NCBI GenBank assembly: GCA_012026655.1
Contig: JAAILG010000199.1
Coordinates: 62,001-126,000, forward strand
Length of the DNA: 64,000 bases
Source of the DNA: Hydrolagus affinis
Taxonomy: Eukaryota
Direction of reading: 5' to 3'
Each line of letters starts with the position of its first letter. Position 1 is the first letter of the stretch. Below, in pieces: positions 8,573 through 64,000 of this stretch. Below the pieces are notes generated by a model. The model was not told the DNA's origin, did not search any database, and worked only from the letters and a program-made list of their open reading frames with translations. The translations under genes and the position numbers were made by a program.

Positions 8573-8873
8573 AATAATAAAAATAATAATCCTTGCACGT
8601 GATGTAGTGCTTTTCATGTCTTCTGGATGTCTCAAAGCGCTTCACAGAATATACTGTAAAGTAAATTGACTATATGTGGGTGAACATGATAGCCACTTAT
8701 TCACAGCAGGGTTCCACAAAAAGGCGTGGATTGAGATGATCAATTTTTTTTGAGGGATTGTTATCAGGTGTGTAGAGTAAGGAAATTTGCCCAAGGTTTC
8801 ACCCTGCCTGGAATCGAACCCAGGTCTCTCACTTGCAAGGCAAGTGCTCTAACCACTGAGCTACTGGACTCCA
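8573..8873 (-). mobile_element. Full-length tRNA-derived DeuSINE
   Basis: The minus strand has A box TAGCTCAGTGG, B box GGTTCGATTCC, the Deu core and an (ATT)n tail. Confidence 0.9.
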
Positions 8874-15599: not shown

Positions 15600-16247
15600 C
15601 ACATGGGCTGGAATTCCTGACCAGAGTCTGAAATCACTTCCAGGCTCGACTACGGGAACTCTCTCCTCATCGGTCTCCCCAGCTCCTCCCTTCGCAGGCT
15701 GCAGATCATTCAGAATTCTGCAGCTCGTGTACTCTCCTGCACCAGGTTTCATGACCACATCACTCCCACCCTCGCCCGTCTCCACTGGCTCCCCATCACC
15801 CAGAGGATCGAATTCAAGATCCTTGTTCTCACTTTCAAGACCATTCACGGCCTTGCCCCTGCCTATCTCTCTGACCTACTGTCTCCCTATCAGCCTGCCC
15901 GTCCCCTCCATTCAGCAGACTCAGGCCTGCTCTGGTCCACTGCCCTAAATGCCCAACCATCAGCGGCCAGGCTTTCAGCCGCTCTGCTCCAACACTGTGG
16001 AACTCCATCCCGCAGCCCCTCCGCCTTGTTTCCTCCCTTTCCTCCTTCAAGGCCGGTCTCAAGACCTTCCTCTTCAACCGCGCTTTCGCCTGCCCACTAA
16101 CTCTTTCTCCCCTCCCACTCTCCTTCTCCCTACGTCAACCACCCACCTCCCCCCCACCCCTGGCTCGGGACCCGACCTGACTGTTCAGTACTTTGGGACA
16201 TCCTCCCGACGTGAAAGGCACTATATAAGTGCAATTTTGTTGTTGTT
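15600..16247 (+). mobile_element. L2-clade LINE 3' end
   Basis: Encodes LQIIQNSAARVL...HITPTLARLHWLP...RIEFKILVLTFKTIHGLAPAYLSDLL and ends in a stem-loop plus (TTG)n. Confidence 0.92.
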
Positions 16248-18422
16248 AAAAGTTCTCAAGGGCAAAAATGGAATATTTAAAATGGTATTTTAAGAACATT
16301 GGTAAGAGATATTGTATTTTGAAATGCAAAGTTGCGCAACTTAGTTTGTTTCCCAGAAGATAAAATATTAGCTCTCCTACTGGGATCTGGACCATTCCAT
16401 TTCTGAAGCTGTGTTTCATGTACTGCAGGATCTGGAATGTTATGGGCAACCAAACCTAATTTCTGAAGTCATTATTCAAATGGTCTCACTCTCCACAGAT
16501 TGCTCTGACCCCAGATATGACTGGGAATCAGAGAACATTCCAACTCTACATTCCATCACCATGTATTTTACTTCATTCTCCTTTTTTTCTTCGTGAAACT
16601 TTACGCTCATCAACCTGAGGGATGTTTTGAAATGTAACATTTTGTCGAGAGACACCCCCAGGTAAGCAAAAAAAACGCATCGATTCAATTTAAAATGAAA
16701 CTTCCTTTAGTCTCCCCTAGCAATGCATTTTGAATGCCTAAATCCAAACAACCATCAGTTGGAATCCATAATGGACAGACTAAGATATGAGCTCAAACTC
16801 GCTAGCTAGGGCTTGAACCCACAATCTTATGTCTCTGAGGTGAAAATGCTACTGACCGAGCCAAACTAATACGGTTCTGAACTGAGTATACTTTCCATAG
16901 GTATGACACTGATCGAAATTTATCAGAATGTCTCTCTATTGAACAAAAATCCTCAGTTGGAATTTAAGAAATAAATGTTGTGCAAGGAATCATGTACTTG
17001 GAGTAAATAACAGCATTTCACTATTAATTCTACGTCCTACTTCACGTGCACACACTTTAATAATATGTGTTGAAGCACATTAACAGATACTTTTTGATGC
17101 TGTCCTCCAATAAATCTTACACAGCCACTCTGCTGTAAATGTTTGATCATTTCTTTTCAAAATGTCAAATTATGCCTTCAGAAAACATGATCTCAGTTTT
17201 TTATTTACCCAAAGGATAAATCCTTTCCTCTGATTTTCTCAATGTATTCTTTAGTCTTCATATGATCACTGTTCTAACAAATACTGGCTAATAATCTTTG
17301 AAAAGCCAACGGTATTCCCACAGGTCCCGGTAATTGACTAGCGTGAGTAATTAATAGTGAAATCCTCCAGATGTGAAGCATTTATCTGATCAACATTCTG
17401 TGCAACATCCCTGAACTGTACAAATACGTATTTGGTTAATAAATAAAGCAATTTACACTTAGACAATTTCATCCAGTTGATTATGTACATTTTATACTAA
17501 CCCTCTTTTCCCTTGGTATTCTTGGTGGTGGTTTTACAATTTAATCATATAATATTTACTTTGAATATGTGGAACTATTTTAATAACATTCACATTTATA
17601 ATGTTATAGTATGTTACTGCTGCATTATACAAACTGAACACCTTCTTAGACATCTGATTATGAGATCGCGTTTGATAGGTTCTATCCTCAAGTTCAGCTC
17701 CTGGCACTCAGATTTCTGAACCAGCTGCTGCAGTCTTGCACAACATTGATTTGTACATTGAGGACATTTGAACATAGTACGTAATAATAATTTAAATGTT
17801 TGAAAAAAAACAATAATATTCACCCAATACAATCAATTTTGTATCCACTCACCACTTGGTCTTCTGTAGCTAAAACTTTTGCAAGCTGCACCATGAAATC
17901 TCACGTTCTGAATCTTGCTTTGAGAAAAAAGAGCCAATGGCTTTAGTATACAGTATGTTAGCTATTGAATGACAAGATGCCTTTTTGGTTACACTTGTAA
18001 TTAACTTACAGATCAGGTTCTGTCTCAAAATACATCCCATCAAATTGACAGCTCAATTAGTTCCCTTCACTGGAATGTCAGAACATAGCTGCAAAGCTAG
18101 ACTCATGGAAATACGATTGACCTTGAAAAAGCAATACCTTTATAAAGTCTTTATAGGTGTTATATCAGATGGAGATCAGAAACACGTCTGGTAAAATGCA
18201 ATCATATCCTTAGGAGTTCATGAGGCATTACAAGACGTACACTATAGTCAAATAAAGCTCCGCATTTATTTTAAGGCTGATATCTTCCTTCTATGCTTGT
18301 TTCCTTTCAATCATATCAATATCTCACAAATATTTGTGGAGGTTACATTGAATTTCGACAGTCAATTGAACTGTTTGTGTCAATTTATAGTGCTCACTGA
18401 GCAGCTAAAGTATAAGTGACCA

Positions 18423-18673
18423 TTGCAACAAAAACAGAAATCGCTGGGAACACACAGCAGGTTGGGCAGTATCTATGGAGAAAGTGAGTCAACGTTTCAG
18501 GTCCACGACTCTTTGACAGAACTGGAGCATGTTGGGAAGCACACTCTCCCGACATGTTCCATCGACGTTGACTCTCTTTTCCTTTCTCTATAGATGCTGC
18601 CTGACCTGCTGAGTGTTCCCAGCTATTTCTGTTTTTGTTTCAGACTTCCAGCGTCTGCAATATTTAGCATTTT
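18423..18673 (+). mobile_element. Non-autonomous Penelope-type fold-back element with a decayed hammerhead motif
   Basis: Long inverted arms with an inner hairpin and a one-sided extension of about 35 nt. Flanked by GTATAAGTGACCA (18410-18422) and GTATATGTGACCA (18674-18686). Confidence 0.75.
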
Positions 18674-19717
18674 GTATATGTGACCACTATCTTTTTTTTA
18701 TATAGCTGTTGATTTTTCATTTGATTTAATGGAATATTTAATGAGATACACTTATTCAAGCAGTTAAATATCTAGTCTGAAACTGAATTTGGACTCGTTG
18801 AAATTGAAGCTATAATGAGTGAGTGCTGCTAAATTTTTTAAGCAGTTCATTTTATTTGGAGGAATTGTGATGTATCACTTGATAAGCTGATGCAAAATCA
18901 TAATGCAGAAGAAATTATGTTTTCAGGAGAATGTATGTAATATTATCAATAATTCAAACCCTGAGTTTAGGTCAAAATGTTATGCTACTTGTAAATATTG
19001 TTTCATCAATGTTTTATGGAATCTATAATCCATAGGATGCGAAGGGGCTGCTAGTTTTAAGGTGCGGCCAAATACAAATGTAAATAAGGTGCTGAGTTCA
19101 CGTATGGAAAAGCAAGATGATGCTTTTAAAAATGCATTGGATTTTCTGATTCTTCAATTGTACATAATAAAACATTTTGCGCTGTCTACCTTTGAAAACA
19201 AATCAGCTGCAACGAGTAAATAACTTTCTGCAGACAATTACTGCAAGTAGCTCGTGTATTTGATTCATTTCAGATGTCTGCAATCTCTTTTGCATGCATT
19301 TAATGGTCCTACAAAATTCACACTTACTACATTTTACAGTAAATACTGTATTACATCAAATGAGAAGATTATCAAATATTTTTCAGCTAGTTGAAAATAT
19401 CGACAATCAAACAAAGGAACTTGATTTAACCACATCGACAAATAAACCTGCGTGGAAAGGGAAAAAATGCTTTTAGCCACATTACCAGTTGAATTACAAA
19501 TCATTGGCTGTGCTGCAAAGCCGCAGTGCAAAATGATTTGTGTAATTTGTTTTGAGATGTTCATCCTGCAATGTAACGATGACATAAGTGCACATTTTTG
19601 TACTTGTAGAGAATTCCGAAAACAAATAGTTTCCTCATGTGTAAAAAAGTCATTTTCACGCTTGAACAATTAAAGCTTTGGCAAACAAAATTTCTTCATG
19701 AAACATGAAATTTACAT

Positions 19718-23858: not shown

Positions 23859-24170
23859 CAATAATAATAATCCTTGAATTTAATAGAGCGCTTTTTCACA
23901 TCTTATCGACGTCTCAAAGTGCTTCACAGAATATATTGTAAAGTGAATTGACTGTATATTTGTGGACGAAACGCAGCAGCCAATTGTGCACAGCAGTATT
24001 CCACAGAAGGGTTGTAGACCCGAAACGTTGAATCTTTTTCCTTTCTCCATGGACGCTGCCTGACCTGCTGAGTTTCCCCAGCAACTTCTGTTTTTGTTCC
24101 ACAAACAGTTGTAGATTGAAATGACCAATTTATCATTATTGTTTTTTTGGAGGGATTATTATTATTAGGC
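23859..24170 (-). mobile_element. DeuSINE interrupted by a Penelope-type fragment
   Basis: The SINE consensus resumes on both sides of the 24006-24096 insert. Confidence 0.85.
24006..24096 (+). mobile_element. Single arm of the Penelope-type hammerhead element
   Basis: GAAGGGTTGTAGACCCGAAACGTTG...CTGACCTGCTGAGTTTCCCCAGC, with TSD TTCCACA at 23999-24005 and 24097-24103. Confidence 0.85.
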
Positions 24171-59548: not shown

Positions 59549-60810
59549 ACAATAACAACAACAACAACTTTGATTTATATAGCGCCCTCCATGCCGGACG
59601 GCGTCTCAGAGCGCTCCACAATAGTGGATCCCGGGACCGAGCCAGGGGCATGGGTAGAAAGGTGACCAAAGGTGCAGTCGAAGAGAAAGGTCTTCAGCTG
59701 GGACCTGAAGCTGAGAAAAGAGGGAGCGAGGCAATGGTAGTGAGGAAGGGAATTCCAGAGCCTTGGGGCGTGGTGGCTGAAGGCATGGCCACCGAGGGTG
59801 GAGCGGAGGATTTGGGGGACATGGAGGAGGCCAGACCCAGTGGAGTGAAGGCAACGGGAGCTGGTTTGAGGAGAGAGGTTAGAGAGACAGGGGGTGCAGA
59901 GGAGTGGAGGGATTTGAAGACAAGGGTGAGGATCTTGAAGTTGATCCTCTCTGGGATAGGGAACCAATGAAGTCTGGCAAGGACTGGGTAATGGGGGAGC
60001 GAAGTTTGGTGCGGGTGAGTATGTGGGCAGCAGAGTTTTGAATGCGTTGGGTTTTATGGATTGTGGTGGAGGGGAGACCGGCAAGGAGGGCATTGGAATA
60101 GTCCAGCCATGAGGTGACGAAGGCATGGACCAGGGTTTCAGCGGCTATTGGGTTGAAGTATTGCCGGAGACGGGCGATCCGTCAGAGGTGGGAGAAGGTG
60201 GTGCTGGTGAGGGACCAGATGTGAGGGAGGAAGGACAGTTGGGGGTCGAACTTGATGCCAAGGTTGCGCACAGGTTCAGAGAGTTTTAGTGGCAGACCAG
60301 GAAGGTGGAGGAGCTAACAGCCGTGCGAATGGAGACATTGATGAGAGCCAAAGAGTATGGCCTCCGTCTTGTCAACATTCAGCTGTAAGAAATTTGCGCT
60401 CACCCAGCTCCTGATATCTGACAGGCAGGCTGACAGAACATCAGGGGACTGGGGGTCACAAAGTGAAATGGAAAAATAGTGTTGGGTGTCATCCGTGTAC
60501 ATATGGAAGTGTGCCTCATGTCTGCAGATGACATCCCCAAGAGAGAGCATGTAGATGAGGAAAAGGAGGGGGCCAAGGATGGATCCCTGGGGCACCCCAC
60601 AGGTAACCGGGTGAGATCGGGAGGAAAAGCCGTTTGTGGAGATGCACTGCTGGCGGTTTGTGAGGTAGGACTCGAACCAGGCAAGTGCAGTCCCACTGAG
60701 GTGGATGACTGAGGACAGGCAGTGGAGGAGGATGGCGTGGTCGACTGTGTTGAACGCAGCGGACAGGTCCAGGAGGATAAGGAGGCAGAGGAAGCCCTGG
60801 TCGCAGAATG
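59549..60810 (-). mobile_element. L2 LINE, about 1.26 kb, 5'-truncated, with the RT domain
   Basis: ORF 60314-60817 has LLDLSAAFNTVDH, GVPQGSILGPLLF, YTDD (from YADD) and LQLNVDKTE, followed by an in-frame stop. (TTG)n tail. Candidate TSD TGGAACT at 59542-59548 and 60819-60825. Confidence 0.96.
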
Positions 60811-62564
60811 TAACCATGTGGAACTGGCATTTTCAAAACTGATTTCCATCAAATTCCTAATCAAATTTGAGGACTAAAAAAATTGAATTGGTGAACCATT
60901 TTAAAATCTGAAACATTTTGATGTGTATTGCTGTAAATCGACAGTTGGGTCCTTAAATTGTCTTGTAGCATTAGAAGAGGGAAATGGAAATCAAAACTGC
61001 ATGACGGTTTGCATACTTGCTTTGAAGAAGATTTTGTATGAATTTTATTTGCGATATGACCGAGCTCACTGAATTCTGCTCAAGATTTACAACTGTCATG
61101 ACAGTACATGATTAAGAAGAGCAAACTAAACTGGATGTGGTTCAATACAAACTGATTCACATGTATTCATACCGGTATATGATGTTTGGCTAGACAATAC
61201 ACAGCCATTATACTTGACGGTAAATCCTACAAAGCACTTTGGGACATTCTCCTGGATTAAAAGCTGCCATATCAAAATTCAATGAATGTTATTATTTTTA
61301 GTGTGATTTTAAACAGGGTAAATTGGCATGTGGTTGTTAAAAGCTAGCTAACATAGTCTGAAGACTTAATTTAGTACTTGTATTCTGGAGGCAACAAACC
61401 ATCCAAATCTTTTGTTATCAACCATATAACAGTAATCCTTATACATGACATATAACACCATGGCAAATTCCTAGGAATCGGAATATATCAAATACCTGTT
61501 ACTTTTCCAAGTGAAAGAGACACACCAACTGTTAGATACTGAATGCACATGTACATTTCCTTGAATTCTGCTGTAATTCACCTGCAGGGCTGCAGTTCTC
61601 CCTCTAATTTTCCCTCCTCACCTTATTGCAAATCATTGCACCTGCATTTAACATCTACTAACAAGGGCTAAATTGGGATTCTGGTTCTCATTCTGTTGTA
61701 CTGTGCTTCACTATAGCTATAAATGCCTTCAATAAAGATCTAAAATGTTACACCATTTTGATTTTTGCTTTTCAGCTCAAACTGCTCTTTCTGTAACCCC
61801 AGTAAATGGCACCTTGCTGTGAGAGGGGAATAAAATCTTCTGATCTCTGTTGTATCGTTCAAAATTGTGTGCCATAGCTTGCTCAACATGCCTCTTTCAT
61901 GCCATTTTCTACATTGCTTTGATTTAGAGGTCATGCACATGACCCAGAGCACATTGGATATATCATTGCTTGAGCTTTTGAATTGGCGAATTTTATACAG
62001 CCACTATACCAAATGTTGTCTTTCACAGATTCTTTCAGACCCTCAGCAGGAGAGACTCTGAAAAAAAAATGGCCTTGAATTATAACACAGTTCCAGAAAT
62101 GATTGAGAGCTCCTTTAAATAAGACAATTGCAGTAATCAGTTAAACTAAGTTGTAAGTGAATTAAAATATAAATTGGTACAATTTCGTTAACACCTTCTA
62201 AGCTTGTAACAAAAAGCAATCAATATGACTACAAAGGGATTTGTTGTTTTACGCCCCCCTTCTTTTTAGCTGCAAAAAATTTAAGAGTTTTCATATCAAT
62301 GCACAACAGTTGTAAGTATATCAGAACATGCTGAGAATGATTTCTCACTGCTGATAAAGCTGCGATAGCTGCTGTGATGCTGCCTTCATGTTTATCTTCC
62401 TGTATTGTCATATCAATAAGTAATGATCATTAATAGTTAATGGTTCATATGAGTTAATGTGAGGAGTAAACAGAAAATGCCAAGAAACTAATATGCAGAA
62501 CTTTCAAGAGGCACATTAATGAAAAATTGACTGAAAAAAAGATACTTGCCTTATAATAAATGCT

Positions 62565-62831
62565 AAACACAAAATACTACAGATGCTGGGAATCTGAAAC
62601 AAAAACAAAAGGTGCTGGGGAAACTCAGCAGGTCAAACAGCATCCATGGAGAAAGGAAAAAGAGTCAACGTTTCGGGTCTACAACCCTTCGTCAGGACTG
62701 GGGAAACCTCTCCCTCCAAACAAGCTCCAGTCCCAATGAAGGGTTGTAGACCCAAAACATTGACTCTTTTTCCTTTCTCCATGGATGCTGTTTGACCTGC
62801 TGAGTTTCCCCAGCAACCTTTTGTTTTTGTT
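62565..62831 (-). mobile_element. Non-autonomous Penelope-type fold-back element
   Basis: Inverted arms of about 105 bp and a one-sided tail of about 30 nt. Perfect 14-bp TSD TTATAATAAATGCT at 62551-62564 and 62832-62845. Confidence 0.88.
62663..62699 (-). ncRNA. Minimal type I hammerhead ribozyme motif
   Basis: Minus strand reads AGTC-CTGACGA-A-GGGT-TGTAG-ACCC-GAAAC-GTT-GACT. Stem I, the CUGANGA core, stem II, GAAA, palindromic AACGTT and an NUH triplet are all present. Confidence 0.7.
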
Positions 62832-64000
62832 TTATAATAAATGCTGCCTGATTTCGGTAAAATGCATGTAATCATAGAGGCAAGCAGATATATTTTTACC
62901 AAGCAAGGGTCTGGCACCTTATCAAAGAACAGGTACAGACAATTTCAGATAAATACATTGATGGTCCAAGTATAACATTGCAACTTACCAAACCACACCT
63001 GATCCACTCCCAATATCTAAAATATCTGAACAGAGCCAAACTGCAATGATGTCTGCACAGTAAATTGATTATTACAAACCAGAAAGAATGAAACAAAATT
63101 CTAACATTACAGGTGAAAATACAATAATGTAAGAATTCCACACTCTTACTATCTGATCTTAACATTGACTGGGGAGCAGATGAAATGCCTTTTCCTGTAA
63201 GCTGTGACTGATTTTAGTAGACAGTTCACACTGTGGAAATAAAGGACTTCTCATGAAATGAGGCAACAACAACAAAATCATATTTGTATAGAGCCTTTCA
63301 CGTCAGGAGGACATCCCAACGGGCTTGGCGGGAGGTAAATGAAGTTACAAAACTCTCCAAAATATCAGCTCACTACAGTATCAGACTGAAAATGATGTTC
63401 AAACTTCTCTTTGGTAGATTGGAGTTCGGGAGAAGTGTTGTCTACCTATTTGGGTTAAACAAATTAAAATTAGTTCAGTATTCTCAGTTATACAATACAA
63501 TGAGGCTGCTATTCTCAAGTTTGAGATAAATCCTCCAGTGGTGGAATGATGCAAAGGCTTTGTGTGATCGAACAATTGGGTTTGTCAGATTGATAGGCAC
63601 AGTAAGAATACCAGCGCTCCTGTTAACAATGATTCTTAGAAATGTTTAGAAAATAGAGAACTATTGAAATGGTGACCAGCAACAGAAAATTAAAAAACGT
63701 TCCATTCAGAAATTGTTTGAGCTAAGTAGACAATGGAATAGATAATATGAACCCTTAAACAGGAGACTATCAACCTGAAAGTGAGGTCTAATTTGTGATA
63801 TTTCTTAATGGAATGAATTAATGGTTCATTGACCCATGGGAACTCTGCCATACAAGTAGATTGTATTAGAGTGGTGTTAGTGTGAACCATGTCTTGCTAC
63901 TAGAACAAGTCTCCATTTATTCAATTTATAAAGGATTCCCATTATGAAAAAAGAAACACAAATTGGACTGCAATATTAACTTGTGCAAAGTGGGTGAAAA

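Follow-up and report, generated by a model that had tools for sequence, protein, structure and literature searches.

The 267-bp fold-back insert at positions 62565-62831 of the window, i.e. the whole stretch of 64,000 nucleotides of Hydrolagus affinis DNA that was analysed, is a Neptune-type Penelope-like element (PLE) insertion in a minimal form with two arms, and its architecture has already been published. Judged from its sequence, it very probably comprises two 5'-truncated pseudo-LTR (pLTR) copies arranged head-to-head in a one-off PLE insertion. The two arms were likely made together in a single event and never recopied as a unit. The best explanation as a whole, a one-event PLE insertion that was not recopied and that used two nicks and one RNA, is regarded as probable; the two-nick, one-RNA mechanism taken by itself is slightly favoured. 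The insert is ordinary: It is one among thousands of truncated Penelope-type insertions.

A perfect, A+T-rich 14-bp direct repeat (62551-62564 and 62832-62845) flanks the insert as target site duplication (TSD). The inverted arms (62601-62701 and 62727-62827) are 101 nt long and 91% complementary, their pairing can be extended to 62597/62832, and a 32-nt tail (62565-62596, minus strand) is unpaired at one end. The perfect TSD, the arms of about 105 bp and the one-sided extension of about 30 nt recognized in the original prediction were confirmed. For the whole insert, folding predicts one long hairpin of ~110 bp (z -25).

Reference positions refer to the antisense pLTR of locus L034 and are numbered from its tail end, with 1 corresponding to window position 62565; on this scale, the hammerhead occupies 99-135 and its predicted cut 102/103. 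The left arm is a tailed pLTR copy (62565-62703, element sense on the minus strand) that covers reference 1-139 and is 97.8% identical to the L034 pLTR. The right arm is a tail-less copy (62703-62832, element sense on the plus strand) running from reference 161 to 33 with 93.1% identity to L034, and its final base overlaps the TSD. Compared with a genomic copy in which one arm continues beyond the pLTR, as is the case for some copies, the insert thus reads 1-139 followed by 161-33 in inverted orientation. The arm-arm junction at 62703 is a 1-nt overlap private to the window copy; its 16-mer is absent from every other fetched locus. What had appeared as a spacer of about 26 nt is element sequence from upstream of the hammerhead, into which the right arm extends further: 62704-62725 (plus strand), present on this arm only, matches in reverse complement the 22 nt that come next in the source element. 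This means, the template extended upstream of the usual 5' edge. The tail would be a 3' extension between two putative reverse transcription (RT) start sites at reference ~1 and ~33. In full-length copies, it continues into the 5' UTR, ~40 nt before the ORF ATG. Around the inner RT start, at window 62589-62615 on the minus strand, a T-rich tract ending in CAG resembles a splice acceptor. PLEs keep introns in this region.

At 62663-62699 (minus strand), a minimal type I hammerhead with an intact motif is located, with the cut predicted between 62667 and 62666. It comprises a 4-bp stem I, CUGACGA, a stem II of 4-5 bp, GAAA and a palindromic ACGU stem III, and the published description of minimal hammerheads (min-HHRs, PMC4209133) bears out its original assignment. 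The core pattern matches only once in the window (62667-62695, minus strand) and never in 100 shuffles. The Rfam scan proposed along with the original prediction was performed as a cmscan at E<=10; it returned no hammerhead family and only miRNA models below their gathering scores, which were rejected as hairpin artefacts. Because Rfam gave no hammerhead, the ribozyme call is based on the motif and the published min-HHRs. According to the accessible text of that study, min-HHRs of metazoan PLEs are of type I, with a short stem I and a palindromic stem III without loop, and opposite-strand min-HHR pairs are found 100-700 bp apart in Schistosoma (PMC4209133). The window motif shares with them the core boxes, the extra base before G10.1-C11.1, the short stem I and the palindromic loopless stem III, but differs from those described there in its GUU triplet and is considered a putative ribozyme. 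The hammerhead monomer folds no better than shuffled sequences (z -0.3 to -0.9), and a single pLTR yields z -1.1 to -1.7.

In the other arm, the mirror copy (62729-62765, plus strand) has decayed by five substitutions at 62734, 62735, 62737, 62754 and 62759. It had been thought to be broken largely by CpG-type changes. Three of the five (62737, 62754 and 62759) are indeed CpG transitions. The catalytic core is affected by three substitutions, of which 62754 (G12A) alone arose directly at a CpG; the TG to CA exchange at 62734-62735 (U4, G5) did not. The assumption of an ancestral hammerhead on both strands was substantiated, as both cores are still intact in 15 of 41 scoreable two-armed copies. 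Across 924 kb of fetched, partly overlapping loci, the motif matches 77 times (shuffle 0). The core is intact in the majority of the family and in 2,745 genomic matches (2,520 + 225; controls 1 and 1), but is preserved in only 27/52 tailed and 34/61 tail-less arms. Core and non-core positions decay at 0.0175 vs 0.0214 at A/T sites and at 0.037 vs 0.041 at G/C sites. On this evidence, the core is apparently kept in the source elements and neutral once inserted. The stem changes encountered are one-sided and retain pairing (C-G/U-G in stem I; top of stem II); no two-sided compensatory change was seen. Among the matches listed (the first 100 of 225), a search for subfamilies with a compensatory stem II found mostly single mismatches.

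The source of the arms was found in the same genome (1.11 Gb, contigs), where a similarity search proposed 3,924 candidates; 40 of these were scored and gave 82 matches. Upstream of the pLTR, source copies carry a 3' UTR, then a GIY-YIG domain and then a reverse transcriptase. The GIY-YIG domain scores above the Pfam cut-off (E 6.1e-05) and the reverse transcriptase just under it (RVT_1, E 1.5e-06); the top atlas cluster for the source protein is RVT_1/HTH_animal/GIY-YIG at 0.97, and a PDB sequence search with the reverse transcriptase returned 0 matches. Reverse transcriptase and C-terminal GIY-YIG are located in one ORF region, which in the copies examined is interrupted by frameshifts or stops; no intact ORF was seen among them. 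One locus, L100, is near full length: a partial, tailed pLTR is followed by two ORF fragments (325 and 487 codons) and a complete pLTR. The arrangement of a pLTR at the 3' end and a partial copy before the ORF is found in both L100 and L113, and a pLTR ahead of the ORF could be scored at 18 of 30 ORF-start loci. Hence, the proposed Penelope origin, the pLTR with minimal type I hammerhead and tail, which is shared with ORF-bearing copies, and the autonomous RT/GIY-YIG partner whose termini match have all been located, the partner in copies with frameshifts or stops. First-look candidates, which are not copy numbers, amount to 3,924 for the pLTR, 1,671 for the endonuclease (EN) end, 360 for the reverse transcriptase and 203 for the ORF start. 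The translations contain a CX4CxxC linker, a CxxC within GIY-YIG and two His further on. Neptune/Nematis elements are defined by a CX2-5CxxC linker before EN and a CCHH motif within EN (PMC8557442, accessible part), and the linker and EN cysteines fit this definition. The source PLE matches the Neptune type, the choice between Neptune and Nematis being made by sequence motifs and host.

Further repeats were noticed in the window. Reading frames at 15621-16100 and 59575-60832 look like decayed LINE reverse transcriptase and 3' regions, presumably of CR1/L2-type LINEs. At 8800-8869 (minus strand), a tRNA-Ala-like sequence was found that is possibly a SINE head.

To sample insertions without bias, a 20-nt pLTR word (reference 73-92) with 3,880 exact matches in the genome (control 0) was used. 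The first 100 of these matches represent 87 loci, or 86 after dropping L148, since L147 and L148 are one duplicated insertion; L225/L227 are duplicates of the same kind. As the word sits at 73-92, anchor arms are no shorter than its span. Two arms are present in 47 of the 86 insertions (43 plus 4 with short inverted stubs), and about 39 lack a second arm. The lengths of the 43 two-armed copies range from 131 to 2135 bp, with 33 between 190 and 250 bp, and their coordinate sets are all distinct (43/43). Their TSDs measure 8-17 bp, so the long, variable TSD expected originally, and not a fixed short one, was observed. At least 10 bp are found in 37/43 (one mismatch allowed from 11 bp) and 13-15 bp, the family mode, in 27/43; TSDs of the family contain 70% A+T.

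These copies follow a strict one-tail rule. The tail is present on exactly one arm in 47/47 unbiased two-armed copies (43/43 and 4/4), and also in all five two-armed copies that bear an ORF end (L060, L074, L096, L108 and L114). Single-arm copies comprise 28 tailed and 15 tail-less ones, counted before the four stubs were moved; if tails were chosen independently, the one-tail pattern of the 43 pairs would have a chance near 1e-13 or less. Tail-less arms end at 28-36, as do tail-less single-arm copies. In 18 of 43 pairs, the tail-less arm exceeds the tailed one by more than 5 nt, which implies that neither arm was copied from the other. Head-to-tail pLTR arrays were found at 0/87 loci.

Several other copies were observed. 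At 18409-18693, the window contains a second fold-back from an older subfamily (74-86% identity to the reference, 13-bp TSD with one mismatch) that also combines one tailed and one tail-less arm, and at 24006-24101 a lone pLTR copy without tail that covers reference 31-126, its sense strand being the plus strand. In L071, an older PLE copy has been invaded in opposite orientation by a younger one (850-1333), which is flanked by a separate 9-bp TSD. This locus was rejected as a two-tailed pair; such nests mimic two-tailed inverted pairs. Searches with L034:3950-4500 (runs X1-X4) revealed the pLTR family to be abundant in three other organisms, mostly with another stem II variant and with private opposite-strand joints in contigs.

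In the original prediction, the insert was interpreted as a protein-free fold-back parasite of 267 bp; in this model, its transcripts would be processed by the hammerhead, and the Penelope protein would move the unit as a whole. Hairpins of 190-250 bp with TSDs and without ORF are in fact common (33/43 two-armed copies), in Adineta, trans-mobilisation of solitary pLTRs is possible (PMC3846280, accessible part), and the many genomic matches with intact core fit this view as well. A unit that replicates as such should, however, share junctions by descent or carry arm-specific sites, and neither was found. When the 77 two-armed copies of the unbiased and the similarity set were compared with each other (2,926 pairs), three pairs had centres of similar size, and all three differ at subfamily markers. 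L178/L199, which agree in junction geometry, were rejected as a case of shared descent and considered a recurrence, as these markers differ on both arms. Exact matching revealed 0 shared junctions among the 77 copies, a test that decay makes weak on its own. Across 80 arm pairs, 37 of them from the similarity search, no site is arm-biased at p<0.01. Within a copy, the arms differ by 0.048, compared to 0.060-0.064 between copies for any arm combination. Subfamily alleles agree between arms in 33/34 (17 expected), 62/71 (33), 64/74 (37) and 67/74 (39) cases, and 26/248 rare alleles are common to both arms vs 3.6 expected. The varied junctions and lengths, the lack of arm-specific mutations and the alleles shared between arms indicate that the hairpin is made afresh at every insertion and that no 267-bp master is copied. 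The arm concordance could also be due to two RNAs of one active subfamily or to later conversion between arms. Furthermore, sizes extend continuously up to ORF-bearing copies, which display the one-tail inverted arrangement, too. Together with arm ends that avoid the cut site, a predicted hairpin that would bury the ribozyme, and cores that decay like non-core sequence, the 77 two-armed copies largely refute such a parasite, which is now very improbable. The palindromic arrangement with TSDs does recur genome-wide, in 47/86 insertions, as anticipated originally; a fixed unit does not, since junctions and lengths differ and no arm-specific changes were found. A DNA transposon with long terminal inverted repeats, for example a MITE, would likewise be short, non-coding and bounded by inverted arms and a TSD. 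It was rejected, as neither a fixed short TSD nor symmetric inverted repeats were found: TSDs vary between 8 and 17 bp, the ends are asymmetric with a one-sided tail, and the arms represent the 3' end of an RT/GIY-YIG element, truncated at 5' to graded extents. Its probability is negligible. Annotation of such hairpins as MITEs, as precursors of miRNAs or as a parasite in their own right should be avoided.

The 5' ends of the arms provide information on the template. Of 129 ends, 112 reach at least 110 and lie beyond the cut site, 5 fall at 100-105, i.e. at the cut site, and 56 at 129-138, the 5' edge of the hammerhead. This edge is sharp at 136-137. As the arms pass the cut site, the template RNAs were uncut. 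Ribozyme processing, a part of the original prediction, with 5' ends at the cleavage site, is thus not supported by the arm ends, the predicted ~110-bp hairpin or core decay. Instead, the 5' limit of the template is likely the front edge of the hammerhead, where transcription would start. Copies reaching the ORF start have the same limit: their upstream pLTR ends at <=137 in 13 of 14 independent events (three at 134-137, one at 126, nine shorter and one full tandem). For these copies, 18 of 30 loci could be scored, of which four share one flank and two another. The common flank of L211, L212, L213 and L219 at the 5' end of a long PLE copy indicates one insertion that was multiplied together with its surroundings. 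When the partner arm extends beyond 145, an arm ends at the peak in 0/10 cases vs 36/76 others (p 0.004; arms not independent), as expected from one shared 5' limit of the template. Five exceptions from the similarity-biased set (L009, L012, L016, L029 and L045) have one arm at 131-136 and the other past 145. A cap-derived extra base at the 5' edge is not clear. The promoter match is weak: the Inr-like word is located at +1, and the TATA-like one, TTAAGAAA, near -30. In single-cell RNA reads of another organism, the pLTR is covered on both strands without a pile-up of ends.

A mechanism with two nicks and one RNA could explain these observations as follows. The endonuclease of the element would set two nicks ~14 bp apart in A+T-rich DNA, and both 3' ends would prime reverse transcription on one uncut RNA. 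Starting at the distal site would yield the tailed arm and starting ~33 nt further in the tail-less one. The cDNAs would stop, and repair would join their ends with a small overlap or filler. The element RNA likely begins at the first hammerhead bases (reference ~135) and would carry the start sites twice. Priming on its 5' copy would run off after at most ~135 nt, which would produce the many hairpins of 200-250 bp. The right arm of the window copy reaches 161, which suggests the 3' pLTR as its likely template, on an RNA continuing into the 3' UTR of the ORF. Support comes from a Poseidon PLE, which belongs to another PLE clade: In vitro, both strands are cut and extended, two internal starts bound the tail, and uncleaved RNA is used; its protein is a predicted dimer (PMC11167929). 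A more specific version, in which a protein dimer provides two reverse transcriptases, each with a fixed start site on one uncut RNA, and run-off at the hammerhead sets the size, is given an even chance. If true, double priming would unite tail, inverted pLTR and solo pLTRs under one mechanism, and the hammerhead would have no cutting role in producing two-armed copies.

Two other routes to the same structure have to be weighed. Arkhipova et al. 2013 put forward a fold-back origin of head-to-head repeats in PLEs (PMC3846280, as far as accessible); here, one cDNA or antisense template would snap back and copy the second arm from the first. This would account for identical alleles in both arms, for one tail per pair and for the short local duplications at many junctions. 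It is hard to reconcile with the 18/43 pairs in which the tail-less arm carries sequence missing from the tailed one, the window copy included (161 vs 139). Moreover, the tail always belongs to the tailed arm and is missing from the other, so later trimming of the first arm would be needed, and the tail-less ends at 28-36 match tail-less single-arm copies, as a start site predicts. Snap-back is therefore quite unlikely. Alternatively, two-nick priming might have used a short non-autonomous single-pLTR RNA (~135 nt or longer), similar to a SINE or retrozyme, with the hairpin as by-product. Short copies far outnumber ORF copies among the first-look candidates, retrozymes derive from pLTRs (10.64898/2026.07.22.740005, accessible part), and haplotype frequencies differ, GAGGGA being found in 7/52 short arms, the only place where it was seen, and in 0/37 ORF-selected ones. 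Nevertheless, all marker alleles are common to short and ORF copies, no head-to-tail pLTR array was present at 87 loci, the window copy reaches 161 and thereby lies upstream of the 135 edge, and ORF-start copies have the identical edge. A short template is considered unlikely. The preferred reading remains priming at two nicks on one uncut element RNA.

The origin of PLE inverted repeats and one-sided tails has been called unresolved (PMC8557442, PMC11167929, accessible parts). Under the same partial coverage, an inverted, 5'-truncated pLTR with a one-sided tail and TSD has been published repeatedly (PMC3846280, PMC8557442, PMC2377424), e.g. for Pen2a_Av of Adineta vaga (PMC3846280) and Penelope of D. 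virilis (PMC2377424) with a tail of 30-40 bp. In the main texts of the openly accessible literature, no paper was found on a fixed palindromic PLE parasite, none that joins 'twin priming' and 'pLTR', and none that states the common 5' edge or the rule of one tail per pair. Together with the shared alleles, these two properties translate into concrete predictions for the in vitro system that already exists.

With the EN+ PLE insertions described in these sources, the insert shares the head-to-head pLTR, the tail at one end, the TSD around the whole unit and the variable inverted repeat. In contrast to them, its arms are little more than the pLTR and the ORF is gone. In the genome studied, the two-armed form is abundant, constituting about half of the sampled insertions, and the TSD mode is 13-15 bp vs 8-10 bp in Adineta (PMC3846280, accessible part). 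Poseidon_Ac of the green anole (PMC11167929) resembles the present element in two internal RT starts, putative in the latter, that bound the tail, a hammerhead upstream in the pLTR, A+T-rich targets and an uncut template. The ORF start lies inside the hammerhead and the tail in the ORF in Poseidon_Ac, whereas here the ATG is ~40 nt beyond the tail; two-strand priming is not invoked as the origin of inverted arms in the accessible part of that paper. Non-LTR retrozymes are also non-coding and pLTR-derived with a type I hammerhead (PMC7229834, 10.64898/2026.07.22.740005, accessible parts). They form head-to-tail tandem units (10.64898/2026.07.22.740005), whereas the window insert is a head-to-head pair; a non-LTR retrozyme was rejected, as tandem hammerhead units were found at 0/87 loci. 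A last comparison concerns L1. In L1 twin priming, both target nicks prime cDNA, and the inversion lies within one TSD pair. It inverts a 5' segment without duplicating it, whereas here the same 100 nt are present on both arms.
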